Shown: positions 28,216 through 47,832 of the stretch, piece by piece
Layout: each line of letters begins with the position of its first letter
How positions within the stretch are numbered: position 1 is the first letter of the stretch
From: a virus
Taxonomy: Duplodnaviria > Heunggongvirae > Uroviricota > Caudoviricetes
Direction: 5' to 3' (one strand)
Length of the DNA: 47,835 bases
IMG/VR virus record: IMGVR_UViG_3300033076_000838
Coordinates: 1 to 47,835 of that record
Position numbers and translations under genes: made by a program
The notes under the pieces: model-generated
Told to the model about the DNA's origin: nothing
Database searches by the model: none
Seen by the model: the letters and a program-made list of their open reading frames with translations, nothing else

Positions 28216-29817
28216 ATGCAAAAAACAAAAAGAGCCGTAGAATTAGATATCTTATCAGATGTTTATGTGACACAAGATGGTGCGGCGTACAATTCACCAT
28301 CTGAAGCAATTGAAGATGCAATGGACAATTGCTTAAAAGGATTTGAACCAGATTTAGTAACGAAAGAAACCCCAAGAAAAATCCAAATCATTTTTTATAC
28401 AATCTTCAAAGAAAGTAGTATTCCTCATGCAATTGATATTATTGATAATAGTATTGGTATGGATGAAGATGTTATATTAAATTCTTTGTTTTTAACAAAC
28501 ATAGAAAATACAAAAAAACATGGTAAAGGTGGTACATCCACGTGGGGAATGGGGTATAAATCACTTTGCCATTATCTTGGTGAGCCAGGTGAAGTTTATA
28601 CAAGAACAATTGAACAGGCTAAGAATGACCTGCCTGGAACATTAGCAAAGGTAACATATCAAAAGGGGTCAAAACCAATCGCAGAAATTGAAAGTTTAAG
28701 TGCTGAATTGTTTTCACATGAACTTTCTCATATTTGTGAAAATGGACATGGTACTAAAATTTCAATTAGAAATATTAAACCAGAAAAATGGACTAATTCA
28801 TGGTGGAATCCTCAAGGTCAAACGTATTCAAAATCTTGGTCAAAAAGATATAATAGACAATTATCGAATGGAACTTTAGAAATTGAACTTATACTTAAAA
28901 CACCTGAAAAAATTTATAAAAAAACATTAGAACCATCACACAAAGTTTTAGATTCAAATCCACAAGTAGATGTTGATGGACAGGATACTAATTATTTAAG
29001 TTGTAGTAGAAATAGTTGGAATGTACGTGGAGAAGATTTACAAGTACATGGATATACTCAACCATTTTCCGTAAACATCGGTAAACATTTATCACCAATA
29101 CAAGTTAAAGCATGGAAAACGATAGGAAATATTCCTCTTATATCTCATACTGCAACATCTTCGGCTAATCCGACGGTTTATTTATATCAAAATGATGTAT
29201 TAATTGCAACGCTTCCATACAAAGAAAGTGACCGCAGTGGTGGTTTAAATCATTTAAATGGATTGTTTGTAGAAGTCGATATTCCAACTGATGTACGCAT
29301 ACCAACTAATTTACAAAAGACAACTGTCGATTCATCATTTAGAGAACTAATTCAAACGGAAGTTAAAAAACGAGCAGAAGAATTATGGAAACCAGTTGAT
29401 GTAAGTGAAGCGGAATACCATAAAATATTTCACGAAATGGTATTAAATCAATTTTTAGGTAAAGGGATTAGAGATACTTTTTTAGATGGAAAATCGATAG
29501 ATGACTTGAAAGGTGGTAAATTTGTACATGAACACCAACAAGGTTCTATGAAACCGGACTTTAAATTTTTAGATGACGATAACAAAATAAAGAGAGTTAT
29601 TGAAATGAAAGATGAAGTTTGTAATGCCGAAGTTGCACATCAATTAGCTGCTTACAAATTAGAACATCCTGAAGCAATTGAAGTTATATTAATAGCACCA
29701 GGTTTTAAAGAAACATTAACACAAACATTAAATAAATGGAGTGGTACATCTGGTACTAAATTTTCTTACTATTCATTTAATCAGTTGGGTATTAAAGAAA
29801 TAAGTTCTTTAAAATAA
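28216..29817 (+). CDS. GHKL (MORC-like) ATPase fused to a C-terminal PD-(D/E)xK nuclease
   Basis: EDAMDN, IDNSIGM, WGMGYK, HGTKI (GHKL boxes); C-terminal KPDF...VIEMK...QLAAY. Confidence 0.8.
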   Translation: MQKTKRAVELDILSDVYVTQDGAAYNSPSEAIEDAMDNCLKGFEPDLVTKETPRKIQIIFYTIFKESSIPHAIDIIDNSIGMDEDVILNSLFLTNIENTKKHGKGGTSTWGMGYKSLCHYLGEPGEVYTRTIEQAKNDLPGTLAKVTYQKGSKPIAEIESLSAELFSHELSHICENGHGTKISIRNIKPEKWTNSWWNPQGQTYSKSWSKRYNRQLSNGTLEIELILKTPEKIYKKTLEPSHKVLDSNPQVDVDGQDTNYLSCSRNSWNVRGEDLQVHGYTQPFSVNIGKHLSPIQVKAWKTIGNIPLISHTATSSANPTVYLYQNDVLIATLPYKESDRSGGLNHLNGLFVEVDIPTDVRIPTNLQKTTVDSSFRELIQTEVKKRAEELWKPVDVSEAEYHKIFHEMVLNQFLGKGIRDTFLDGKSIDDLKGGKFVHEHQQGSMKPDFKFLDDDNKIKRVIEMKDEVCNAEVAHQLAAYKLEHPEAIEVILIAPGFKETLTQTLNKWSGTSGTKFSYYSFNQLGIKEISSLK

Positions 29818-34910: not shown

Positions 34911-35924
34911 ATGAGCAAATTATTTACCGAAAGAGTTCCTTTCAAACCATTTGAATATCCTGAATATTATACCGAAGGTTGGTTAAAGCAAATGCAAGCA
35001 TTTTGGTTGCATACTGAAATACCAATGCAAGGTGATTTTAAGGATTGGAATGAAAAACTAACTGAATCTGAAAAACATTTGGTTGGTAATATCCTTTTAG
35101 GATTTGCTCAAACGGAATGTGCAGTTTCTGATTATTGGACAGGTATGGTTACTAAGTGGTTTCCCAAACATGAAATCAGACAAATGGCTATGGCGTTTGG
35201 TTCACAAGAAACTATACATTCAATCGCGTACTCTTATTTAAATGAAACGTTAGGTTTAGAAGATTTCGAAGGGTTCTTACATGATGAAACGATGAAAGCA
35301 CGTTTCGAACTTCTAACTAACACAACAGCAGATTGGACTCCTGCCGATTTGGATACTAACCATAAAGCAAGAGTTGAAGTTGCTCGTTCATTAGCAATAT
35401 TTTCTGCATTCGCAGAAGGTGTTGCATTGTATTCTTCATTTGCGGTTCTTTACTCATTCCAAATGAGAAACCTATTAAAAGGTATTGGACAACAAATGAA
35501 ATGGAGTGTTAGAGATGAATCTCTACATTCAAAAATGGGATGTCAATTATTCAGACATATGTGTCAAGAATTTCCAGAATTATTAGAGGAAGCAAAAAAA
35601 GATATTTACACAGCAGCTAAAATTATCATAGATTTAGAACACAAATATATTGATAAGATTTTTGAAATGGGTGATTTGGAGAATCTTAAAAAAGATGACC
35701 TAAAAGAATTTATTACAAAAAGAGTTAATGAAAAATTAGGAGAATTGGGATACAATCCAATTCCTGGTGGAGATGATTATTTTGAATTCGATGATACAAA
35801 GGCATCCGAATTAGATTGGTTTTATCACCTTACCGGTGGGGTTACTCATACGGACTTCTTCGCAATCAGACCAACTGATTATTCAAAAGCAGGAGAAGGT
35901 GAAGATTGGGGTGATATATTTTAA
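34911..35924 (+). CDS. nrdB: Ribonucleotide reductase class I beta subunit
   Basis: KPFEYP, FW...E, QETIHS.AY, AEGV.LYSSF, RDESLH, DFF..R.TDYSK. Confidence 0.96.
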   Translation: MSKLFTERVPFKPFEYPEYYTEGWLKQMQAFWLHTEIPMQGDFKDWNEKLTESEKHLVGNILLGFAQTECAVSDYWTGMVTKWFPKHEIRQMAMAFGSQETIHSIAYSYLNETLGLEDFEGFLHDETMKARFELLTNTTADWTPADLDTNHKARVEVARSLAIFSAFAEGVALYSSFAVLYSFQMRNLLKGIGQQMKWSVRDESLHSKMGCQLFRHMCQEFPELLEEAKKDIYTAAKIIIDLEHKYIDKIFEMGDLENLKKDDLKEFITKRVNEKLGELGYNPIPGGDDYFEFDDTKASELDWFYHLTGGVTHTDFFAIRPTDYSKAGEGEDWGDIF

Positions 35925-35938
35925 AAAATAAAAAAATT

Positions 35939-37720
35939 ATGGCAAAAAATTACGCAGAAGACTTAGGTTGGGAATTAGGTGTTGATTTTCCTGAGTGGGG
36001 TAATACGGAGGTATATGTTAAAACCATATCCAAAGGTTACTTACTTCCCGGAGAAACACCAAAAGATGCATATTGGAGAGTATCTACCAAAGTAGCACAA
36101 AGGTTGAATAAACCACAATTAGCATCCAAATTCTTCGATTATATTTGGCGTGGTTGGTTATGTTTGGCAACACCTGTGTTATCAAATACTGGTACGGATA
36201 GAGGTTTACCTATATCTTGTTTCGGTATTGATGTAGCAGATTCCATTTTTGATATTGGTAATAAAAACTTAGAGTTGATGTTACTTGCAAAACATGGTGG
36301 TGGTGTTGGTATTGGTATAAATCAGATTCGTCCTGCTGGTTCACCTATCACAGGAAATGGAACATCAGATGGTGTAATTCCATTTGCTAAGATATACGAT
36401 TCTACTATCCTTGCAACTAATCAAGGTTCAGTAAGAAGAGGAGCAGCATCAGTAAACTTAAACATCGAACATAAAGATTTTGAAGAGTGGTTGGAAATCA
36501 GAGAACCGAAAGGTGATGTGAACCGCCAATGTTTGAATATGCATCAATGTGCAGTAGTTGGTGATAAGTTTATGAGAAAGTTACAAGATGGTGATGAAGA
36601 GGCTAGAAGAAAATGGGGTAAATTACTTCAAAAGAGAAAGGCAACCGGAGAACCTTACATTATGTTTAAGGGGAACGTAAACAAACAAAATCCACCGATG
36701 TATAAACAAAATGGATTGAAAGTGTTTATGACTAACATCTGCTCTGAAATCGTTTTACATACTGATGAATCACATTCATTTGTATGTTGTTTATCTTCAT
36801 TAAACTTAGCAAAATATGATGAGTGGAAAGATACTGATTTAATTTACACATCGACTTGGTTCTTAGATGGAGTTCTTTCAGAATTCATTCAAAAGGCTAA
36901 GAATATGAAAGGTTTTGAAAATTCAGTACGTGCGGCAGAAAAAGGTAGAGCATTAGGTTTAGGTGTTTTAGGTTGGCACACTTATTTACAACAAAGAGGT
37001 ATTCCGTTTGAAGGTATGACCGCTCAATTTGAAACTCGTAAGATTTTCTCTCAAATGAAAATCGAATCAGAACAAGCAAGTAGAGATATGGCATCTGAAT
37101 TAGGAGAACCTTTATGGTGTAAAGATAGTGGATTCCGTAACACTCACTTACGTGCAATTGCACCGACAGTTTCCAATTCTAAATTGAGTGGAGATGTGAG
37201 TTCCGGTATCGAGCCGTGGGCAGCAAACGTATTTACCGAACAAACATCAAAAGGTACTTTCATTAGAAGAAACGCAGAATTAGAAAAGGTATTAAAGAAA
37301 GTTGGAATCAATACAAAAGAAACATGGGATAAAATCCTTGCAGATGGTGGTTCTATACAAGATATTGCTGAATTAGATAATTGGTGTTTTGTAAATGGAA
37401 AAGTAGTATTATGTTCAGAAGTAACCGATGAAGACAGACACAAAACCTTCAACGTTAAAGATGTATTCAAAACATTCAAAGAAATCAATCAGTTAGATTT
37501 GGTAAGACAAGCAGGTATTAGACAACAATATATTGACCAAGCAGTTTCATTAAACTTAGCATTCCCCGCAATTGCAGAACCAAAATGGATAAACCAAGTA
37601 ACATTAGAGGCTTGGAAACAAGGTGTGAAAACACTTTACTATATGAGAACGGAATCCGTATTGAGAGGTGATATTGCAACAAAAGCAATGGACCCTGAAT
37701 GTTTAAGTTGTGAAGGATAA
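35939..37720 (+). CDS. nrdA: Ribonucleotide reductase class I alpha subunit (short, no ATP cone)
   Basis: ATPVL.N.G, ISCF, GGGVG, QG..RRGA, TNICSE, CCLSSLNL, AIAPT, KTLYY, C-terminal CLSC. Confidence 0.96.
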   Translation: MAKNYAEDLGWELGVDFPEWGNTEVYVKTISKGYLLPGETPKDAYWRVSTKVAQRLNKPQLASKFFDYIWRGWLCLATPVLSNTGTDRGLPISCFGIDVADSIFDIGNKNLELMLLAKHGGGVGIGINQIRPAGSPITGNGTSDGVIPFAKIYDSTILATNQGSVRRGAASVNLNIEHKDFEEWLEIREPKGDVNRQCLNMHQCAVVGDKFMRKLQDGDEEARRKWGKLLQKRKATGEPYIMFKGNVNKQNPPMYKQNGLKVFMTNICSEIVLHTDESHSFVCCLSSLNLAKYDEWKDTDLIYTSTWFLDGVLSEFIQKAKNMKGFENSVRAAEKGRALGLGVLGWHTYLQQRGIPFEGMTAQFETRKIFSQMKIESEQASRDMASELGEPLWCKDSGFRNTHLRAIAPTVSNSKLSGDVSSGIEPWAANVFTEQTSKGTFIRRNAELEKVLKKVGINTKETWDKILADGGSIQDIAELDNWCFVNGKVVLCSEVTDEDRHKTFNVKDVFKTFKEINQLDLVRQAGIRQQYIDQAVSLNLAFPAIAEPKWINQVTLEAWKQGVKTLYYMRTESVLRGDIATKAMDPECLSCEG

Positions 37721-37740: not shown

Positions 37741-38004
37741 ATGGTAACATTAAAGAAATTTTCAGCAGCATGGTGTGGCCCTTGTAGAGCATTAGCACCA
37801 GTGATTAACGAAATTAAGGGTCAATTCCCTAATGTACAATTTATAGATTATGATGTAGATGTTGCATTTAATGAAGCAACACAATATGGTATTCGTTCAG
37901 TACCGACAGTTATAATTGAGAAAGATGGTAAGGAGATTGAAAGATTTACCGGAGCATCTTCTAAAATGGCATATGTAAACGCATTAAATGAGTGTATCAA
38001 ATAA
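37741..38004 (+). CDS. trxA: Thioredoxin
   Basis: WCGPC active site and SVPT; adjacent to RNR. Confidence 0.93.
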   Translation: MVTLKKFSAAWCGPCRALAPVINEIKGQFPNVQFIDYDVDVAFNEATQYGIRSVPTVIIEKDGKEIERFTGASSKMAYVNALNECIK

Positions 38005-38173
38005 AAGAGTTGGTGAAAATCATCCTCGTGCAAAACTTACAAACGAACAAGTTAGAACAATAAGAGAACTCTTTAAACAAGGGTTCTCTACTAATGTTAT
38101 AGCTAGAAATTTTAAAGTTAGTAAGTGGAATGTGGAAGAAATTGTAAAACGTCACACTTGGACACACATTTAA
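37988..38173 (+). CDS. Small HTH protein resembling the DNA-binding tail of HNH homing endonucleases
   Basis: GENHPRAKLT..QV..IR...IARNFKVS...TW.HI. Confidence 0.7.
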   Translation: MSVSNKRVGENHPRAKLTNEQVRTIRELFKQGFSTNVIARNFKVSKWNVEEIVKRHTWTHI

Positions 38174-38205
38174 TTTGGAAATACGAAATATTTTTCGTAT
38201 CTTTG
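38174..38205 (+). promoter_or_regulatory. Bacteroidota sigma-A-type promoter of the putative modification operon
   Basis: TTTG-N20-TATCTTTG. Confidence 0.85.
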
Positions 38206-38229
38206 TAAAATATAAAAGAATAAAAGGTT

Positions 38230-39462
38230 ATGTATTTAGATTACTTTGATAAGTTTTATGGTATGACACCATATCTCTTTATCGGTAAAGAAGAATGGGA
38301 ATGGATTAAAGAAACTTTTAATAGAGAAGATGTAAAAGAATCTCTTGCAAAAGTAGCAGCAACATATGATATTCCATATGCAGAAATTACCGAAGGAGAA
38401 GCAAGAAACGAATATCTTAAATTAAAAGGATTTCGTTGGCACGAATTATTTACCGAAGGAGAATGGGTGCCACGAAAGGCATCTGAATCTCGTTATCCCT
38501 TAACATTTCAAGGTAAACAACAATTCGTTAGAAGAATAAACACTGGCAATCCTGCCTCAAATTATTTTCAACAAGCAAATAGATGGAGTGTCGATGGGAC
38601 AGTATCGCCTGGTCCATATAGGACTTGGAATAACCCTGATTTTATGTTCTCACTTATGGGTGGAATGTACACTTTGAAATTTGATGAGGTTAGTAAAAAT
38701 ACCCTAAGAACTTGTCTATCCTTACGAAAATATATTTGTTCACAATTCAAACCAAACGTTGCAAAAGTACTATACGATTTTGTAGAAGCAAAGAACGTAT
38801 TAGATATTTCAGCTGGATGGGGTGATAGATTGTGTGGATTTTATGCATCAGAATATGGTGAACATTATGTAGGTATCGACCCTCGTAAAGAAAATCACCC
38901 AATTTATAGACAACAAGCAGATTTCTATGAAAAAAATAATGGATTCTTTGAAACCGAAAAGAAATCTACATTTTATGAATCTCCTGCGGAAGATTTGGAT
39001 TTAAGTGAATATAAAGAATACTTTGATATAGTATTCAGTTCACCACCTTATTTTAATGTAGAGAGATATTCATATGATGATACTCAAAGTTGGGTTCGTT
39101 ATAAAACAATCGATGATTGGAATACTAATTTCTTACATAAAACAATTGCAAATGTATGGCCTACAATTCGTAAAGGTGGGTATCTTGCTGTAAACATTGC
39201 AGATGTATATGCATCATCAAAAGGTGATGGTAAAGGACAACAAGAAATTACCAACCCTATGAATGATTTTATTGGTACTCTTGAAGGTGCACATTACGAG
39301 GGATGTTTGGGTATGGAAATGGCCAAACGGCCGGGTTCTGCAGGTGCAGGAATGATTATAGATGGTGATGAAGAAAGATATTCCGAAGAAGAATTAAAAA
39401 AGAACGAAGAAGCAAAAGATAAAACATTTTGTGAACCAGTTTGGATTTGGCGTAAATTATAA
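38230..39462 (+). CDS. SAM-dependent amino-methyltransferase (DNA N4-C/N6-A type)
   Basis: Motif I VLDISAGWGDR, YVGIDP, motif IV FSSPPYF..ERYS. Confidence 0.85.
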   Translation: MYLDYFDKFYGMTPYLFIGKEEWEWIKETFNREDVKESLAKVAATYDIPYAEITEGEARNEYLKLKGFRWHELFTEGEWVPRKASESRYPLTFQGKQQFVRRINTGNPASNYFQQANRWSVDGTVSPGPYRTWNNPDFMFSLMGGMYTLKFDEVSKNTLRTCLSLRKYICSQFKPNVAKVLYDFVEAKNVLDISAGWGDRLCGFYASEYGEHYVGIDPRKENHPIYRQQADFYEKNNGFFETEKKSTFYESPAEDLDLSEYKEYFDIVFSSPPYFNVERYSYDDTQSWVRYKTIDDWNTNFLHKTIANVWPTIRKGGYLAVNIADVYASSKGDGKGQQEITNPMNDFIGTLEGAHYEGCLGMEMAKRPGSAGAGMIIDGDEERYSEEELKKNEEAKDKTFCEPVWIWRKL

Positions 39463-39473
39463 AATAAAAATAT

Positions 39474-40172
39474 ATGACAGTAATAGAAGCAACATCTCCC
39501 GGTGATGCATGGGTAAAGGTATCTAAACATCTTATTGCAAACGGAGAAAAAGTAGGTGATTTAACCGAAGAATTAAATGTGATGACAGAAATCACAAAGT
39601 TTGAATCTGATGATTGGTTTGACCCTCATTTCAGAGAGATTATGGGTGATGATAGAATTGATTACGCAAAGACCGTAACATTCTTAGAACCACAACCATT
39701 TGTTTCAGATTCTCCATTTTTTCAAGCAGAAGAAGGATTGGAATACAAATTCATTAAAGATAAATGGCATGATTCATATTGGGGTAGAATGGTTTCGTGG
39801 CAAGGTACATTTAATCAAGTAGAAAACGTAATCAAAATCTTAAAGACTGGTAAAGCAGTTAAAAGATGTGAATTGATTATCTTTGACCCAAGCAGAGATG
39901 CTAGAAATCCATACTCACAACCTTGTATGTTAGCAATTGATATTAAACCTCGTAATGGTAAAATCTACCTAACATCAATCATTCGTTCAAATAGAGTATC
40001 TAAATCCGGTTATGCAGATTACACTGCGTTAGTTGAAATGGGTAAATTCTTAGCAAAAGAAAGTGATATGCAATTAGAAAAAGTTTCAGTTTTGGCGTGT
40101 TCTTGTCATATTGGTAAAATGAATGATGAAACTAAAAAAACTCATAAATTATTAGAAGTCTTAAATAGATAA
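39474..40172 (+). CDS. Thymidylate synthase-fold protein, dCMP-hydroxymethylase-like (divergent)
   Basis: YWGRM, NQVE.VI..LK, IFDP..D, catalytic PC, IRSNRV...GYADY, SCH. Confidence 0.85.
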   Translation: MTVIEATSPGDAWVKVSKHLIANGEKVGDLTEELNVMTEITKFESDDWFDPHFREIMGDDRIDYAKTVTFLEPQPFVSDSPFFQAEEGLEYKFIKDKWHDSYWGRMVSWQGTFNQVENVIKILKTGKAVKRCELIIFDPSRDARNPYSQPCMLAIDIKPRNGKIYLTSIIRSNRVSKSGYADYTALVEMGKFLAKESDMQLEKVSVLACSCHIGKMNDETKKTHKLLEVLNR

Positions 40173-40173
40173 T

Positions 40174-41679
40174 ATGTGTGGAATCGTAGCAACCATAGGG
40201 TGTAGTAAAGATGAGGTAAATGAAATGTTGGAAGCGATAGAACATCGCGGAAGAGATAATAGAGGAATTAGAGAATTCCAATATGGAGATAAACACATCA
40301 TCTTAGGGCACAATCGTTTATCCATCAACGATACATCACCATTAGGAAATCAACCGATGGAATATGATGGGGTACAATTGGTAGTAAATGGTGAGATTTG
40401 GAATTATCCAACGTTGCGTAAAGAATACGAAGAACGAGGTTATACATTCAAATCAAATTCAGATTCAGAAATTATTCTTTTCTTATATAAAGAGGGTGAA
40501 TTGAATCGTTTAGATGGTATGTTTTCATTTGTAATATATGACAATAACAAATTACTATTATCAAGAGATTGGGTTGGTAAATTACCACTTTATATTCTAA
40601 ATAATAATGAATATATCATTGCAAGTGAAATTAAAGCAATCACTACTAAAACTAAAAGTGCAGATATTAAATTTGTACCAAAAAATAGTTTGGTAGAAAT
40701 AGATTTGGATACTGATAAACTTACGATTCATTCTAATTATTATTTTCAATTCTCAGCAGAACCTACTAAGGTAGAATCACATGAAGAGGTTGCAGAAACT
40801 ACATTTAAGTTATTAGAAAGAGCAGTAGATAAACGATTATTATCAGATGTACCTATTGCAACATCCCTAAGTGGTGGTATTGATTCCGCAGTTATTACTT
40901 ATTTACTTTCACAACGTATTCCAAACTTAAAAGCATATACCATTGCGTTTGATGAAACCTCTAAGGATTTACAAAAAGCAAGAGTTTGTGCCAAATATTT
41001 AGGAGTAGAATTGGTAGAGGTATTTGTCCCAAAAGATGATGAAATAATCAAACAACGTTTCTTAGAATCAATCAAAGTAATTGAATACCCATCGACAGTT
41101 CAAATGGAGGTAGGTATTTTACAATCATTTATCGCAGAACAAATGGCAAAGGATGGGATTAAAGTAGCATTTAGTGGTGAGGGTAGTGATGAATCATATG
41201 GTTCATATGGTACATTCAGAATGTTTAGTAAGAAACCAGATTGGAGTGATGTTCGTAAAAAATTATTTGAAAAACAATATCATGGAAACTTATTGAGAGG
41301 TAATACTATTTTTATGAATTATGGAACAATCGAATTAAGATGTCCATTCTTTGATACTGATTTTTTAAATTACACTACCAACTTAACCGATGAATTTCTT
41401 GCAGATAAAGGACAATGGAAAAGACCTCTTGCAGATGGATTTAGAGGTAAACTACCAGATGAGATATTAGACCAAGAAAAAAGGGCATTTCAAAAAGGAA
41501 CAAACTTTAAACAATACATCGAAGAAATTATTGTAAATGATAAGAATATCAATTTCAAAAATAGAAAGAAGATATTACACGTTATTGGTGATAATTTTGA
41601 AAAAATACATGGATTCTCCCATAAAAATATGAAAGGAGAATTATCATCAAATACAGGAGGAATTTACAAATGGATTTAA
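40174..41679 (+). CDS. Asparagine synthetase B-like glutamine amidotransferase / ATP pyrophosphatase
   Basis: MCGI Ntn nucleophile, HRG.D, HNRLSI, NGEIWN, SDSE, PP-loop SLSGGIDS, SGEGSDE, ELRCPFFD. Confidence 0.93.
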   Translation: MCGIVATIGCSKDEVNEMLEAIEHRGRDNRGIREFQYGDKHIILGHNRLSINDTSPLGNQPMEYDGVQLVVNGEIWNYPTLRKEYEERGYTFKSNSDSEIILFLYKEGELNRLDGMFSFVIYDNNKLLLSRDWVGKLPLYILNNNEYIIASEIKAITTKTKSADIKFVPKNSLVEIDLDTDKLTIHSNYYFQFSAEPTKVESHEEVAETTFKLLERAVDKRLLSDVPIATSLSGGIDSAVITYLLSQRIPNLKAYTIAFDETSKDLQKARVCAKYLGVELVEVFVPKDDEIIKQRFLESIKVIEYPSTVQMEVGILQSFIAEQMAKDGIKVAFSGEGSDESYGSYGTFRMFSKKPDWSDVRKKLFEKQYHGNLLRGNTIFMNYGTIELRCPFFDTDFLNYTTNLTDEFLADKGQWKRPLADGFRGKLPDEILDQEKRAFQKGTNFKQYIEEIIVNDKNINFKNRKKILHVIGDNFEKIHGFSHKNMKGELSSNTGGIYKWI

Positions 41680-42509
41680 GATTAAAAGGATTAAACGAAG
41701 ATACTCCATTAGAACTTTATCATATTAAAGGTAGAGAAGTTTGGGTAAAAAGAGATGACCTTATGGGGGATGGTATTACACTACCGCCGTGGGGTAAGAT
41801 AGCAGCAGTATATGAATTGGTAAAAAAATATGTGGATAGAAGCAAACCATTAACACATCTTTCGGTAGATGGTAGTTGGACAGCTTGGGTTCTTGCAGCA
41901 ATATGTGAACAATTAGATATTGAATTTTATGCATCACATCCTGATTCTAAAAAAATATCACAAGAGTATTTGAATTTAATTAAAGAAAAATATCCAAAAA
42001 CACATTTGAATCCTATTAGACCTAATATGATGCAAATTATGTATAATTCTTTAAGAGGTCAAGCTAGAGAAAACGGATGGCAAATGTTACCTTATGCTTT
42101 TGACCACGATTTCTATAAAGATTATCTTGCGGAAAGAATTCAACCATTTGTACATTTTGATAATTTAGTTGTATCATCAGGTAGTGGTGTAACCTTAGCA
42201 GGATTAGCAAGAGGATATTATAGAGAAGAATTGAAGGAATTTTTTCCTAATGTCAAACGAAAGATTTGGACAACATGTGTATCATCGGAAAGTTCAATCA
42301 AAAAAACACTTAAAAAAAGTGGAATACCAATTCCTTTGAACATTCGTAAATCAGAGTATCTTTTTGAGAATAGATTGGATGGGTATTCAGCTCCATTCCC
42401 TTGTAATCAATTTTGGGATATAAAGCAATGGAAATGGTTGGAAGAAAATATAGACCAAATTGAGGGTACAATCCTATTTTGGAATATTGGTGGAATTTAT
42501 AAGTTTTAA
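41670..42509 (+). CDS. Fold-type II PLP-dependent enzyme (ACC deaminase / D-cysteine desulfhydrase-like)
   Basis: TPLE...VWVKRDDL...GK, phosphate loop SSGSGVTLAG, C-terminal LFWNIG. Confidence 0.8.
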   Translation: MDLRLKGLNEDTPLELYHIKGREVWVKRDDLMGDGITLPPWGKIAAVYELVKKYVDRSKPLTHLSVDGSWTAWVLAAICEQLDIEFYASHPDSKKISQEYLNLIKEKYPKTHLNPIRPNMMQIMYNSLRGQARENGWQMLPYAFDHDFYKDYLAERIQPFVHFDNLVVSSGSGVTLAGLARGYYREELKEFFPNVKRKIWTTCVSSESSIKKTLKKSGIPIPLNIRKSEYLFENRLDGYSAPFPCNQFWDIKQWKWLEENIDQIEGTILFWNIGGIYKF

Positions 42510-42516
42510 TAAAACT

Positions 42517-42548
42517 TTTGGAAATACGAAAATAATTTCGTATCTTTG
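42517..42548 (+). promoter_or_regulatory. Bacteroidota sigma-A-type promoter
   Basis: TTTG-N20-TATCTTTG. Confidence 0.85.
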
Positions 42549-42571: not shown

Positions 42572-45079
42572 TTGTATAAAAATATCTATTATCAACGCGA
42601 AAAAAATCTAATACATTTATGGGATTCTCATTTAGGTTATAGAACTTTCCCATATACTCGTTATGCATATGAAAGAGCAGAAAGAGGTGAAGCACGTTCT
42701 ATCTATGGTGATAGATTAACAAAAATTTACAAATACAAAAACGATGACCCCGATTTGTTTGAATCGGATGTACCAGAAACAACTCGTGTTTTGGTGGATA
42801 CTTATGTTGATTCTGATATTCCATCCGAAGGTATTGTAACGATGACCTTCGATATTGAGGTGGAAATGGAAAGTGGATTACCCGATACTGAAAAAGCAGA
42901 GAACGAACTTACCGCTATTGGTTTACAAGATAGTGTAACAAATCAATATTGGGTATTGGTAATGGATAAGAAAGGTCAAATGATTGAACGCAAAACCGAT
43001 AAGGCAATCGTAATACCTTTCAGAGATGAGAGAGATATGTGTATGAAATTCTTAGAGTTATACGAAGGAATTCAACCAGACATATTAACCGGTTGGAATA
43101 TTGATAATTTTGATATTCCGTACTTATTCAATCGAATGAAACGTATCTTAGGTGAATCGCAAGCAAAAAGATTATCACCAATTGGTCAAGCATTCTATTC
43201 ACCCTATCGTCAGAGATGGTTTTTAGCAGGTGTAAGTTGTTTAGATTATCTTTCTCTTTATAAGAAATTTAACTATAATGAATTACCTAACTACCGATTA
43301 GATACGATTGGTACAATTGAATTAGGTAAGGGTAAAATTGAGTATAAGGGTTCATTAGATGATTTATTCAACGAAGATATTGAAAAGTTTATTGAGTATA
43401 ACTTAGTCGATGTGGAGATTGTGGTAGAATTAGATAAGAAACTACAATTCATCGATTTATGTAGAGGTATCTGCCACGCAGGCCACGTTCCATATGAGGA
43501 TTTCGTTTATTCATCTAAATACTTAGAGGGTGCATTACTTTGTTTTCTTAAACGTAAAGGATTAGTTGCACCAAACAAACCGGCAGATAGAAAAGAGAAA
43601 CTTGCAGCAATGGCAGAAGCAGGTGAAGAAAAGTTCATCGGTGCATATGTAAAAGACCCTATTGTGGGTAAGTATGATTGGGTATATGACTTGGATTTAA
43701 CATCACTATACCCATCAATCATTATGACTTTAAACATTAGTCCAGAAACTAAGGTTGCTAAGATTTCAGATTGGGATGTTCAAGCCTTTATGAAAAAAGA
43801 GGTACAATATTATCAAATGGGAGATGATAGAATTTCTCGTGATAATTTAGAAAAATATATTAAAGAAGCAGATTTAACAATATCATCAAATGGTGTGTTA
43901 TATCGTAAAGATAAAATGGGATGTATTCCTGAAATATTAGATATTTGGTTTAATGAAAGGGTTGAATTTAGAAAATTGGAAAAAAAGTACGGCCAAGAGG
44001 GTGATAAAGAAAAATATGCCTTTTACGGCAAAAGACAATTGGTTCAAAAAATTCTACTTAACTCTCTTTATGGTGTTCTTGGCCTTCCTGCCTTTCGGTT
44101 TTACGATGTTGATAATGCAGAGGCAGTTACGACTACGGGTCAGACGGTTATTAAGAACTCGGCGAATATGGGGAACATCAAATACAACAAAGAATTAGGT
44201 ACAAAAGATGTAGATTCAAACATTTATATTGATACCGATTCAGTATTCTTTTCAGCAGTACCACTTTTAGATTTCCGTCATCCAAATTGGAAACAAATGC
44301 CAGATGCAGAAGTTGCACAATTGGTAGATGGTATTGCAGGTGAAATGCAAGATTACCTTAATAAATTCTACGATATACTTTCCGATAAATTCTTTAACGT
44401 ACAAAAACACCGATTAGAGATTAAGAAAGAATATGTTGCTAGAGCAGGTATTTGGATTGCAAAGAAACGATATGCACAATGGATTATTTCCAATAATGGT
44501 ATTGCAGTAGATAAATTAGATGTGAAAGGATTGGATGTTAAACGTTCATCATTTCCAAAGGCATTTCAGGAGTGTATGGGAACTGTCTTAATTGATATTC
44601 TTAGAGGTAAATCCGAAGAAGAAATTTCAGATTTCGTACTTGCATTTAAAAAGAGTATGATAGATAGACCAATCCAAGAGATTGCTAAAAACTCTGCAGT
44701 AAAAAACTTATCAAAATATCTACCGAAGAAAAGACAATTATTCCAAATGGAAAAAGGAGTACCTGCACACGTTAAAGCAGCAATCCTATATAATGATTGT
44801 TTAAAACACTTTAATGCTCCATTTAAGTATTCACCTATGAAAGATGGTGATAAAGTAAAGTGGGTATATTTGAAAAACAATCCATTAGGATTAGATGGAC
44901 TAGCATTTACAGGTTATGATGACCCCGAAGAGATTACAAATTTCATTTCAACTTATATAGACCATAATAGAATCTTTGAAGCTGAATTACAAGGTAAGTT
45001 ACAAGATTTCTTTAATGCTTTAAGTTGGGGTGATGTGATTAGTGAACAACGAACAGCAGAAAAATTCTTTAGCTTTTAG
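42572..45079 (+). CDS. Family B DNA polymerase (T4 gp43-like)
   Basis: Exonuclease FDIE, GWN...FDIPY, YNLVD; polymerase DLTSLYPSI, KILLNSLYG, YIDTDS, KKRYA; TTG start. Confidence 0.97.
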   Translation: MYKNIYYQREKNLIHLWDSHLGYRTFPYTRYAYERAERGEARSIYGDRLTKIYKYKNDDPDLFESDVPETTRVLVDTYVDSDIPSEGIVTMTFDIEVEMESGLPDTEKAENELTAIGLQDSVTNQYWVLVMDKKGQMIERKTDKAIVIPFRDERDMCMKFLELYEGIQPDILTGWNIDNFDIPYLFNRMKRILGESQAKRLSPIGQAFYSPYRQRWFLAGVSCLDYLSLYKKFNYNELPNYRLDTIGTIELGKGKIEYKGSLDDLFNEDIEKFIEYNLVDVEIVVELDKKLQFIDLCRGICHAGHVPYEDFVYSSKYLEGALLCFLKRKGLVAPNKPADRKEKLAAMAEAGEEKFIGAYVKDPIVGKYDWVYDLDLTSLYPSIIMTLNISPETKVAKISDWDVQAFMKKEVQYYQMGDDRISRDNLEKYIKEADLTISSNGVLYRKDKMGCIPEILDIWFNERVEFRKLEKKYGQEGDKEKYAFYGKRQLVQKILLNSLYGVLGLPAFRFYDVDNAEAVTTTGQTVIKNSANMGNIKYNKELGTKDVDSNIYIDTDSVFFSAVPLLDFRHPNWKQMPDAEVAQLVDGIAGEMQDYLNKFYDILSDKFFNVQKHRLEIKKEYVARAGIWIAKKRYAQWIISNNGIAVDKLDVKGLDVKRSSFPKAFQECMGTVLIDILRGKSEEEISDFVLAFKKSMIDRPIQEIAKNSAVKNLSKYLPKKRQLFQMEKGVPAHVKAAILYNDCLKHFNAPFKYSPMKDGDKVKWVYLKNNPLGLDGLAFTGYDDPEEITNFISTYIDHNRIFEAELQGKLQDFFNALSWGDVISEQRTAEKFFSF

Positions 45080-46194: not shown

Positions 46195-47832
46195 ATGAGT
46201 AAATACTACTACGAACGCTCGAAATTTTCTGAATTCCAATCCAACACAACTTATCATCAGTTACTACAAATGACCGATGATGAGTTTGTTAGTTGGGCTA
46301 AATTACTGCGTAAAGAGGTAACGAAGCAATGGGATGAAGATGGTGTGCCTCCTGTTATCGGTAAAGATAAGGATGGTATCATCGAATCATTTAAGAAATT
46401 AAAAGGAAACGATTGTGATTTCCTACAAAAAGATTTATCAGGCGATGATGAGTCGTTGGGTATTATTCAGAACTTTAACAAAGATGCATCTGCTATTAAT
46501 CAGTTTTTTCCTACTATGTTGAAAACTAAAATTTCAATTGGAAAATCTGCTGATGGTGGTTTATCTATTTATGACCATTTCTCTGACCCAAATTTAGAAG
46601 AACAATTTGTGAAGATTATGCGTAGAGCTGTTAAAAGAGATTCTATGTATTCGTGGTCACGTTCTATTGTAAATAAAAAAGATGAGAACGAATTTTGGGA
46701 TGGTGAAACTGGTGTTGAATTTATCCAAAAAGTGTATGAAGGTAAAATCTTTGTTGGTAAACATTCTGATTTAGATATTGTAATTGCAAAAGTAAAAGAA
46801 GATACTATTGATAATTATGGTACGATTAACGAACAATATATTGGGTTTGGTAATTTATATCTTAACGCAGAACAATTACAACAATGCGTGGATAATGGTT
46901 GGTTAAACCCTACTCAAATGTCTAACGTTAAAAAGATTGAAGACCACTTAACACTTGCAGATGGTAAAACCACTAAAAAGTTTTATTATCTAATTCGTTG
47001 GTATGATAAGACAGTGGGTATATTCCCTAAAATTTTACAAGTATTTCGTTTAAGTTGTGGACAACCTGCAGTGAATTTTCCTGCATTAACCGCAAAGTGG
47101 ATTTACGAAAACTATACATCGCACATCGAACAAGAAGAACCTCTTCACATTTATGATTCATCAAGTGGATGGGGTGGTAGAATCTTAGGTGCAATGAGTA
47201 GTAGAAAGAAAACTCACTACGTTGGTACTGACCCTAACCCTGATAATTTTATTCCAGAATTAGGAATATCACGTTATGAATATGCAGCTAAATTCTATAA
47301 CGATAATTGTGTAGATGATTTTTCAGAAACATTTACTAAATTCTTTGATGTAGAGAAACAAGGTAATACATATGAATTGTTTCAAGATGGGTCGGAACTA
47401 ATCCAACACAATCCTAAATTCCAAAAGTATAAAGGTAAATTGGATTTGGCGTTCACATCACCTCCATACTTTAATAGAGAACAATATTCACAAGATGAAA
47501 ATCAATCTTTCAAAGCATATGGTGAGTATGATGATTGGAGAGATAATTTTTTACGTCCTACATTAACTACCATTTATGAGTATATGAAGAACGATAGATA
47601 CATTCTTTGGAACATTGCAGATATTAAAATTGGTAAAGATACCTATTATGCATTAGAACAAGATTCTATTGATATTCTAAAAGAATTAGGTTGTGAGTAT
47701 AAAGGTAAATTGAAGATGTTGATGACACGAATGGTAGGATTAGACCCAACTAAGACAGGTATTAAAAACGCAGTGAAACACGATGGTAAAGCATATAAGT
47801 TTGAACCAATCTTTGTTTTTTACAAACCATAA
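46195..47832 (+). CDS. Second SAM-dependent amino-methyltransferase, paralogue of 38230-39462
   Basis: IYDSSSGWGGR, YVGTDP, FTSPPYF.REQYS, terminal EPIFVF matching EPVWIW. Confidence 0.85.
   Translation: MSKYYYERSKFSEFQSNTTYHQLLQMTDDEFVSWAKLLRKEVTKQWDEDGVPPVIGKDKDGIIESFKKLKGNDCDFLQKDLSGDDESLGIIQNFNKDASAINQFFPTMLKTKISIGKSADGGLSIYDHFSDPNLEEQFVKIMRRAVKRDSMYSWSRSIVNKKDENEFWDGETGVEFIQKVYEGKIFVGKHSDLDIVIAKVKEDTIDNYGTINEQYIGFGNLYLNAEQLQQCVDNGWLNPTQMSNVKKIEDHLTLADGKTTKKFYYLIRWYDKTVGIFPKILQVFRLSCGQPAVNFPALTAKWIYENYTSHIEQEEPLHIYDSSSGWGGRILGAMSSRKKTHYVGTDPNPDNFIPELGISRYEYAAKFYNDNCVDDFSETFTKFFDVEKQGNTYELFQDGSELIQHNPKFQKYKGKLDLAFTSPPYFNREQYSQDENQSFKAYGEYDDWRDNFLRPTLTTIYEYMKNDRYILWNIADIKIGKDTYYALEQDSIDILKELGCEYKGKLKMLMTRMVGLDPTKTGIKNAVKHDGKAYKFEPIFVFYKP

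Follow-up and report, generated by a model that had tools for sequence, protein, structure and literature searches.

In Synechococcus phage S-B43, the enzymes CmoA, CmoX and CmoY account for the DNA bases 5-carboxymethylcytosine and its glycine amide (Yang et al., Nat Commun 2025, PMC12783734). CmoY, a homologue of asparagine synthetase, ligates an amine (glycine) to 5-carboxymethylcytosine in DNA, as was demonstrated in December 2025; a second large CmoY cluster possesses a glutaminase domain, and glutamine was predicted to be its source of ammonia (PMC12783734). The thymidine hypermodification of Pseudomonas phage M6 and Salmonella phage ViI involves a 5-hydroxymethyldeoxyuridine (5-hmdU) kinase, an amino-acid:DNA transferase, a radical S-adenosylmethionine (SAM) isomerase and the pyridoxal phosphate (PLP)-dependent decarboxylase gp52/gp226 (PMC5889632, PMC8989533). 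In vitro, M6 gp52 (predicted PLP lysine, K36) converts DNA-borne C-alpha-glycinylthymine to 5-(2-aminoethyl)uracil, and its reported homologue ViI gp226 decarboxylates O-seryl-thymine (PMC8989533). Enzymes of the thymidylate synthase (TS) fold acting on C5 comprise T4 deoxycytidine monophosphate (dCMP) hydroxymethylase, MilA and the flavin-dependent 5-hydroxy-dCMP synthases RB69 gp48, DLP3 gp80 and HY126 AfhB (PMC13326640; PDB 9iqu/9iqc), synthases of this kind having been tested by co-expression in E. coli. The present analysis concerns a module of four genes (38230-42509, + strand) in the viral record IMGVR_UViG_3300033076_000838 of an uncultured aquatic phage, which combines relatives of three known phage enzymes that decorate DNA. 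The window studied (47,835 nucleotides, nt) represents the first 47.8 kb of this 287,455-bp record (CheckV completeness, 100%).

The genes encode, in this order, an SPPY amino-methyltransferase-like protein (P0001), a TS-fold enzyme (P0002), a glutamine-dependent AsnB/CmoY-like amidotransferase (P0003) and a fold-type II PLP enzyme of the M6 gp52 family (P0004). With slightly better than even confidence, we read them as a phage operon, complete in itself, whose products convert cytosine in DNA to a hypermodified base that bears a carboxamide and has not been described.

Conservation and variants of the module

Scans of IMG/VR with P0003 and P0002 yielded 106 loci, 51 of which, after deduplication, contain 2.6 kb or more of sequence on the downstream side of the TS-like gene. 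The initial annotation had proposed examining whether the trio of TS, AsnB and PLP genes is kept in other phages: in each of the 51 distinct loci the TS-like gene, a ligase gene and the PLP gene adjoin one another, the PLP gene always being third in order. The ligase is of the AsnB type in 47 of them and a synthetase-only PP-loop protein of 308 amino acids (aa) in the remaining four. A methyltransferase-like paralog is present within the locus in 45 cases and directly upstream of the TS-like gene in 23. Gene order is kept while the identity of TS-like and PLP proteins drops to 43-48%, and contiguity with overlapping or abutting frames was observed across three phage backgrounds. Relatives of the module are located among genes for replication and nucleotide supply (ribonucleotide reductase, RNR; thioredoxin; family B DNA polymerase, PolB; clamp loader). 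In two T4-like contigs (L105 and L106), exactly the methyltransferase-like, TS-like, AsnB-type (579 aa) and PLP genes are inserted between those for clamp-loader gp44 and gp62, followed by regA.

Among 1.84 billion representatives, an exhaustive HMMER search revealed 13 full-length clusters of the TS-like subfamily. At 90% identity the TS-like enzyme forms 228 protein clusters, including some from Tara ocean samples, and the contigs reach up to 289 kb. A pattern-seeded scan covering the genomes of 185,579 bacterial and archaeal species detected no relative of the TS-like family, and the module is found only in viruses.

The 308-aa PP-loop protein (motif SFSAGIDSS, no glutaminase domain) replaces the AsnB-type gene at L099:8696-9622 and at the equivalent position in L091, L097, L098, L100 and L104, a subgroup whose TS-like protein is otherwise 75-79% identical. 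It had no match in the phage collection, is 29-31% identical to the PP-loop protein of locus L118, and may use free ammonia or another amine as donor.

Several of the further variants carry a B12-binding radical-SAM enzyme. In L115 it follows the methyltransferase-like, TS-like and AsnB-type genes. Two additional genes are found in this locus, an IS605 OrfB/TnpB-type gene between the methyltransferase-like and TS-like genes (L115:6766-7944) and a DUF723/PvuRts1I-N-like gene between the TS-like and AsnB-type genes (L115:8825-9361), indicating that mobile elements entered the module without removing it. A natural fusion of TS-like and B12-binding radical-SAM domains (676 aa) is encoded at L118:7088-9118 (ENA ERZ27271471, contig k99_1004475), where an N6/N4 methyltransferase-like protein, a synthetase-only PP-loop protein and a 395-aa ATP-grasp-like protein precede the fusion and UvsX/RecA follows it. 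In L120 and L122 the TS-like gene abuts a radical-SAM gene; L123 has the order TS-like, AsnB-type, 204-aa open reading frame (ORF), PLP; and L043:281-4707 (IMGVR_UViG_3300038326_000132) contains TS-like, AsnB-type, B12-radical-SAM and PLP genes in one row. A role of the radical-SAM enzyme as straight substitute for the PLP enzyme was rejected, since L043 carries both. From these variants, the constant core is the TS-like enzyme plus an AsnB-type or PP-loop ligase, usually accompanied by a methyltransferase-like paralog, with the PLP and/or the radical-SAM enzyme as its partners.

Predicted enzymes and locus layout

The family assignments of the initial annotation hold for all four proteins, strong Pfam support being confined to the AsnB-type protein and the three others being weak in Pfam. 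P0002 (39474-40172, + strand, 232 aa) stays below the Pfam threshold for thymidylate synthases (PF00303, score 20.1 versus a cut-off of 24.3, E 4e-4), and its identity as a TS homologue was confirmed by its fold. The AlphaFold2 (AF2) model (mean predicted local distance difference test, pLDDT, 84) matched AfhB, the dCMP hydroxylase of phage HY126 (VIA, Z 20.7), the CMP hydroxymethylase MilA (Z 20.3) and thymidylate synthases (Z ~18), the alignments covering ~195 residues at a root mean square deviation of 2.5-2.9.

Residues of E. coli ThyA were mapped by HMMER alignments to MilA, AfhB and S. aureus TS together with ungapped counting. ThyA positions C146, L143, R166/S167, D169 and N177 are occupied in P0002 by C151, S148, R171/S172, R174 and D182, respectively. 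C151, R171 and S172 (the last two corresponding to the Arg-Ser pair that contacts phosphate and base) are invariant in the family alignments, as is D182, the counterpart of the Asp that sets specificity in MilA and AfhB. Because the Cys151 nucleophile is kept and Asp182 stands at the N177 position, P0002 is predicted to be a cytosine-type TS-fold enzyme of a distinct subfamily, in agreement with the dCMP-type homologue proposed originally. At the D169 position, Asp is kept by folate-dependent members and Asn by every tested flavin-dependent 5-hydroxy-dCMP synthase, the latter having been proposed as diagnostic (PMC13326640). MilA has Asp and AfhB Asn (RSQN) in this column, whereas the P0002 family reads RS[NQMC][RA]: all 13 clusters (50% identity) have Arg or Ala, never Asp or Asn. 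P0002 hence has neither the folate-type nor the flavin-hydroxylase residue, and its family possesses an invariant Lys-containing motif of its own, SK[SA]GY[AG]D (SKSGYAD in P0002, with Lys177 and Tyr180).

A separate canonical ThyA with L143, D169 and N177 is encoded at genome positions 189256-190362 (L110:1486-2592), and P0002 is therefore not the thymidylate synthase of this phage. An insertion of ~100 aa, which separates the region of the catalytic Cys from the QRSxD motif, brings the canonical ThyA to a length of 368 aa.

P0003 (40174-41679, + strand, 501 aa) comprises a complete class II glutaminase and an asparagine-synthase domain (GATase_7, 2.5e-31; PF00733, 1.8e-40; E. coli AsnB 1ct9, 2.6e-39). 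Its best match in an isolated phage is gp124 of Streptomyces phage TurkishDelight (33% identity over 91% of the length). C2, R48, N72-G73-E74 and D97, the PP-loop S233-G-G-I-D-S238 and G335-E-G-S-D-E340 are invariant across the relatives, the first five elements also in gp124. The gene for gp124 is flanked by those for a C5-cytosine methyltransferase and a class I SAM methyltransferase (CmoA candidate), with ParB-like genes adjoining. Judged from this gene context, gp124 would belong to the glutamine-dependent CmoY cluster (PMC12783734), and P0003 appears closest to this branch. With glutaminase Cys2 and PP-loop intact, the chemistry of P0003 is most likely glutamine-dependent amidation of a carboxylate, as the initial annotation had suggested. 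To our knowledge, all characterised PF00733 members act on carboxylates. Amination of a base lactam oxygen by P0003 in the manner of TilS or GMP synthase was considered and set aside on this ground and because it would alter base pairing. In L103:8001-10133 (IMGVR_UViG_3300023478_000001) the TS-like frame runs into the AsnB-type gene to give a 710-aa ORF with the first glutaminase residues out of frame; this is either a real fusion losing Cys2, or a frameshift or assembly error.

P0004 (41670-42509, + strand, 279 aa) is below the Pfam cut-off; it matches phrog_7093 (1.5e-24), and its identity was confirmed by homology to gp52 and by fold. It shares 26% identity with M6 gp52 over 278 aa, i.e. 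full length (E 8e-21), and 26-27% over the whole length with the corresponding 'threonine dehydratase' of M6/YuA-like Pseudomonas phages. The predicted PLP lysine, K43, does not vary in the family and falls opposite K36 of gp52 in the alignment; the two proteins also have the C-terminal signature PFPCN..WD.K.W.WL..FWNIG in common. Nearest folds to the AF2 model (pLDDT 91.7) are D-cysteine desulfhydrase, an ACC deaminase homologue, the lanthionine synthase Fn1220, threonine deaminase and CysK, which places the modelled enzyme next to the beta-elimination/beta-replacement clade of fold type II. From the precedent of gp52 and gp226, P0004 is expected to handle a primary-amine-bearing group, which is most likely a base-linked alpha-amino acid. 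Prediction of a P0002-P0004 complex gave a score of 0.00 against a mark of 0.32, which counts neither way.

P0001 (38230-39462, + strand, 410 aa) consists of an N-terminal domain of ~170 aa without assigned function followed by LDxSxGWGDR, AED and SPPYF motifs, all invariant in the family alignment (in P0001, D192xSxGWGDR and S271-P-P-Y-F275). It had no match in Pfam and NCBIfam and only marginal ones in a profile search of PDB sequences; phrog_12517 was matched at 6e-16, and DNA methyltransferase PHROGs weakly. A 545-aa paralog (o545, motif SPPYFN; 46195-47832, + strand; 32% identity, E 9e-26) barely reaches PF01555 (27.3 versus 26.7 bits), the L105 homologue scores 23.6 on the same model, and the language-model neighbours of P0001 in the ESM Atlas are viral PF01555 clusters. 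P0001 is described here as a putative N6/N4-type amino-methyltransferase-like protein. Enzymes with an (N/D/S)PPY motif transfer methyl groups to planar nitrogens, be it of amino groups or of amides such as the glutamine amide modified by PrmC/HemK. A third paralog is encoded at genome positions 100182-101507. Directly upstream of the TS-like gene, near full-length homologues of P0001 are found in L105/L106 and L115, and an o545 orthologue in more distant relatives (L034-L064). TurkishDelight gp123, a C5-methyltransferase, was considered as a homologue of P0001 and rejected.

The ORF listing gives spacings of +11, +1 and -10 nt between the four genes, exactly as initially annotated, and profile matches confirmed the position of the module between RNR/thioredoxin and the replicative polymerase. 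Upstream are the genes for RNR beta (34911-35924), RNR alpha (35939-37720) and thioredoxin (37741-38004) and a 61-aa helix-turn-helix ORF (37988-38173); PolB follows at 42572-45079 (+ strand; PF00136, 3.3e-37; phrog_262, 6.7e-191). This polymerase is 50% identical to that of Microcystis phage Mel-JY01, the nearest isolate by PolB, which lacks the module. A DNA search of the window against isolated phages gave no match.

The 56-nt spacer before the P0001 gene and the 62-nt spacer before PolB carry an element of identical type around a hairpin. Copy 1 (38174-38205, + strand) reads TTTG, 20 nt, TAtcTTTG, with the inverted repeat ATACGAAA..TTTCGTAT between the boxes; copy 2 (42517-42548, + strand) closes the four-gene unit. 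The consensus is TTTG, ~20 nt, TA(t/a)(c/a)TTTG, with the same hairpin. Eight copies of its 12-nt core TTCGTATCTTTG were counted on the + strand of the window (17765, 24614, 27355, 27628, 28155, 38194, 42537 and 45433), where 0.41 would be expected, each copy just 5' of a + strand ORF. The two boxes presumably correspond to the Bacteroidota -33/-7 promoter consensus, and the element perhaps represents one temporal class of phage promoters with an operator-like stem. The single promoter of the initial annotation is thus borne out in so far as the promoter-like element brackets the four genes, which marks them as one unit, probably transcribed as a single message; in a generic scan for sigma-70 promoters and terminators, sigma-70 sites were not above chance and no terminators were found. 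A 533-aa ORF (28216-29817), which has its own copy of the element, matched no PHROG and resembles a GHKL ATPase only weakly (PF13589, E 2e-4).

Proposed pathway and alternatives

Enzymes that start the published pathways were searched for in the complete 287-kb genome. No match was obtained for CmoA (TIGR00740), C5-methyltransferase (PF00145), the amino-acid:DNA transferase (PF18724) and the 5-hmdU DNA kinase (PF18748); as a control, the CmoA model was run on 14 genomes and scored above its cut-off in E. coli only. BLAST with the M6 cluster retrieved the PLP enzyme alone, gp51, gp53 and gp54 being negative. Both published ways of placing a carboxylate or an amino acid on DNA are thereby closed to this phage, and without CmoA and C5-methyltransferase the carboxylate has to come from a source other than carboxy-SAM. 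For the same reason, a carboxy-SAM route via the SPPY methyltransferase (N-carboxymethylation and amidation to a Mom-like base) was set aside. A 195-aa ORF of the 'thymidylate kinase' type (genome positions 55486-56073, ~13 kb downstream of the module; phrog_2107, 2.5e-15) could phosphorylate a modified dCMP.

In the pathway favoured here, P0002 would act before replication, attacking C6 of dCMP via Cys151 and placing a handle on C5, with Asp182 selecting cytosine. The kinase-like protein and host kinases would then form the triphosphate for incorporation by the adjacent PolB, which would need to accept the modified nucleotide. P0004 might bring in the carboxylate by transferring a Ser- or homoserine-derived alpha-amino-acid unit onto the C5 handle in a beta- or gamma-replacement, the product being a base-linked amino acid of the type that gp52 and gp226 bind. 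P0003 would adenylate the carboxylate of the appended group and amidate it with glutamine-derived ammonia. The SPPY methyltransferase could finally N-methylate the new amide or amine, in analogy to PrmC/HemK, or a nearby exocyclic amine. The cytosine would thereby acquire a cationic amino-amide side chain that shields the DNA from host nucleases.

These steps differ in strength. Action of the TS-fold enzyme on C5 of a cytosine mononucleotide before replication, with subsequent phosphorylation and incorporation, is well grounded, given the family chemistry, the Cys and Asp residues and the separate ThyA. So is the amidation step, given the full set of catalytic residues and the precedent of CmoY acting on DNA. 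P0004 is proposed as installer of the carboxylate because transferase, kinase, CmoA and C5-methyltransferase are all missing from the complete genome; this would be the one scheme granting each enzyme a family-consistent role, and beta-/gamma-replacement is the ancestral chemistry of its nearest structural relatives. The particular order of installation by P0004, amidation and N-methylation is put forward as a tentative proposal that is much more probably wrong than right.

Several observations weigh against the favoured pathway, the chemistry of which is entirely inferred. The sole characterised members of the PLP family, gp52 and gp226, are decarboxylases and not installers (PMC8989533); were P0004 to decarboxylate as well, the same carboxylate would be unavailable to the amidotransferase, i.e. 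the two enzymes would compete. In at least one locus (L115, 16.7 kb) no PLP gene is seen, so the PLP enzyme is not a universal source of the carboxylate, and a B12-radical-SAM enzyme is adjacent or fused to the TS-like domain in some relatives. The variation between Arg and Ala at the D169 position gives no pointer to the co-substrate of P0002. P0003 passes the asparagine-synthase equivalog cut-off of TIGR01536 (292 versus 267 bits), so that plain asparagine synthesis is still conceivable, and the glutamine-dependent CmoY branch has never been assayed, soluble or purified protein not having been obtained (PMC12783734). Finally, the methyltransferase-like copies differ in number and position among loci; SPPY enzymes usually methylate base amino groups, and the copies may be plain anti-restriction methylases.

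The decarboxylase precedent leads to the alternative that survives best, though it is unlikely: the TS-fold enzyme would install an amino acid already at the nucleotide stage, a side-chain nucleophile trapping the exocyclic-methylene intermediate, whereupon the PLP enzyme would remove the alpha-carboxylate and the AsnB-type enzyme amidate a second carboxylate or act on another subset of sites. It would assign P0004 the only activity known for its family (PMC8989533), and hydroxymethylases of the TS family trap the same intermediate with water, which is established TS chemistry; the small Ser148 at the L143 position, moreover, leaves the P0002 site open. The adduct, however, needs two carboxylates plus a free alpha-amine, which no linkage of a simple amino acid provides, and a methylene-folate route is doubtful because the folate-contacting Asp is absent.

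In the diphthamide pathway (Dph1/2, Dph5, Dph6), a radical-SAM enzyme appends an amino-acid unit, which is N-methylated and whose carboxylate is amidated by an ATP-dependent PP-loop enzyme. By a related scheme, likewise unlikely and scarcely less probable than that of nucleotide-stage installation, the PLP enzyme (or the radical-SAM enzyme in relatives) would make an aminoacrylate or a 3-amino-3-carboxypropyl electrophile or radical, which the TS-fold enzyme would join to C5 of dCMP by a C-C bond, with amidation and methylation as for diphthamide. The fusion in L118 and the abutting genes in L120 and L122 argue for a partner enzyme, an ArsL-type aminocarboxypropyl-transferring enzyme is among the weak matches of the radical-SAM proteins, and C-alpha-glycinylthymine, the natural substrate of gp52, contains a base-CH2-CH(NH2)-COOH unit (PMC8989533). 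Yet PLP-bound aminoacrylate and TS-bound nucleotide would occupy two separate active sites, L043 argues against radical-SAM and PLP enzymes being simple alternatives, and the radical-SAM proteins best match B12-dependent methylases, all scores lying far below the cut-offs. The initial annotation had the PLP enzyme hand an amino-acid unit to the TS-fold enzyme for such C5 attachment. While its hypermodification reading gains from the conserved, virus-only module beside replication genes, this specific transfer found no direct support; the idea stays alive because relatives fuse the TS-like domain to a radical-SAM enzyme.

Quite improbably, the module might not address DNA at all, but make a modified free nucleotide or nucleoside-type small molecule or modify RNA, e.g. 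via a MilA-like start of a peptidyl-nucleoside directed against the host or defence signalling. MilA, an enzyme of mildiomycin synthesis, ties with AfhB in the structural comparison and is the best PDB sequence match of P0002, and AsnB-type and PLP enzymes are common in nucleoside-antibiotic pathways. On the other hand, the module is always found among replication and nucleotide-supply genes and travels with DNA-type N6/N4 methyltransferase paralogs, and, for two of its enzymes, the nearest relatives of characterised function work on DNA.

Independent auxiliary genes without a joint pathway (asparagine synthetase, spare thymidylate synthase or dCMP methylase, amino-acid deaminase, anti-restriction methyltransferase) would suit the equivalog score of P0003, the likeness of P0004 to catabolic desulfhydrases and deaminases and the varying methyltransferase copies, but are very improbable in view of the strict contiguity in three phage backgrounds down to ~45% identity, the in-place replacement of the AsnB-type gene by the PP-loop protein, the TS::radical-SAM fusions, the ThyA encoded elsewhere, and the score of P0003 far under the AsnB-specific model NF006949 (257 versus 499 bits). 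The NCBIfam asparagine-synthase match of P0003 is confined to residues 2-357, and the C-terminus of the protein is shorter than that of AsnB.

Comparison with known systems

Full-text literature searches (TS homologue plus asparagine synthetase or amidotransferase plus phage DNA modification) retrieved no description of the module. The statement of the initial annotation that known pathways do not use this combination stands in that none is described, and has to be qualified in that gp52/gp226 and CmoY, relatives of two of its enzymes, belong to published pathways. Each part has a published relative, and phage DNA hypermodification is known as a kind of pathway. New are the way in which the parts are combined, the lack of all known starter enzymes, the B12-radical-SAM variants and a TS-fold subfamily with a predicted active-site signature outside the folate and flavin classes. 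A doubtful but far-reaching possibility is that this subfamily adds a third kind of catalysis to the cytosine branch, using neither folate nor flavin, and together with the PLP (or radical-SAM) enzyme forms a new C5 bond to an amino-acid unit, which after amidation with glutamine nitrogen and N-methylation yields a 'diphthamide-like' cationic amino-amide cytosine; if true, such a base would be common in aquatic Bacteroidota phages and some T4-like phages.

Whether a restriction, CRISPR or type IV system can cut the DNA of a phage depends on its hypermodifications, which have also been a source of enzymes for sequencing and DNA-labelling chemistry. The module is widespread, compact and virus-only and joins parts of three separately discovered pathways. 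Solving it would probably provide a new natural DNA base, a new reaction type of the TS superfamily and the first activity for the glutamine-dependent CmoY branch.

With the Cmo system the locus shares an asparagine-synthetase homologue, which there converts a carboxylate on C5-modified DNA cytosine to an amide, and the gene context of gp124 is that of the untested glutamine-dependent CmoY cluster (CmoX/CmoY/CmoA arrangement). Unlike there, neither CmoA nor a C5-methyltransferase is encoded, and TS-fold and PLP enzymes are present instead. As in the M6/ViI systems, a TS homologue would supply the C5 handle, P0004 is a full-length homologue of gp52 with equivalent predicted PLP lysine and shared C-terminal signature, and a radical-SAM gene adjoins the PLP gene in L043 in the manner of gp53/gp52. 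Differences from these systems are the predicted cytosine target, the lack of kinase and transferase, the presence of an amidotransferase, and the B12-binding class of the radical-SAM enzymes of relatives, for which BLAST detected no similarity to M6 gp53.

P0002 shares with the other TS-fold C5 enzymes the fold and the catalytic Cys, has like them an Asp in place of N177 and a small residue in place of L143, and at ~230 aa matches AfhB in length. It differs from them in the Arg/Ala at the D169 position and in its SK[SA]GY[AG]D motif, and, unlike at their loci, no glycosyltransferase gene adjoins that of P0002. The diphthamide pathway acts on a protein histidine, and the likeness to it, taken as an analogy only, would lie in a common logic: an amino-acid unit is appended, methylated and amidated.

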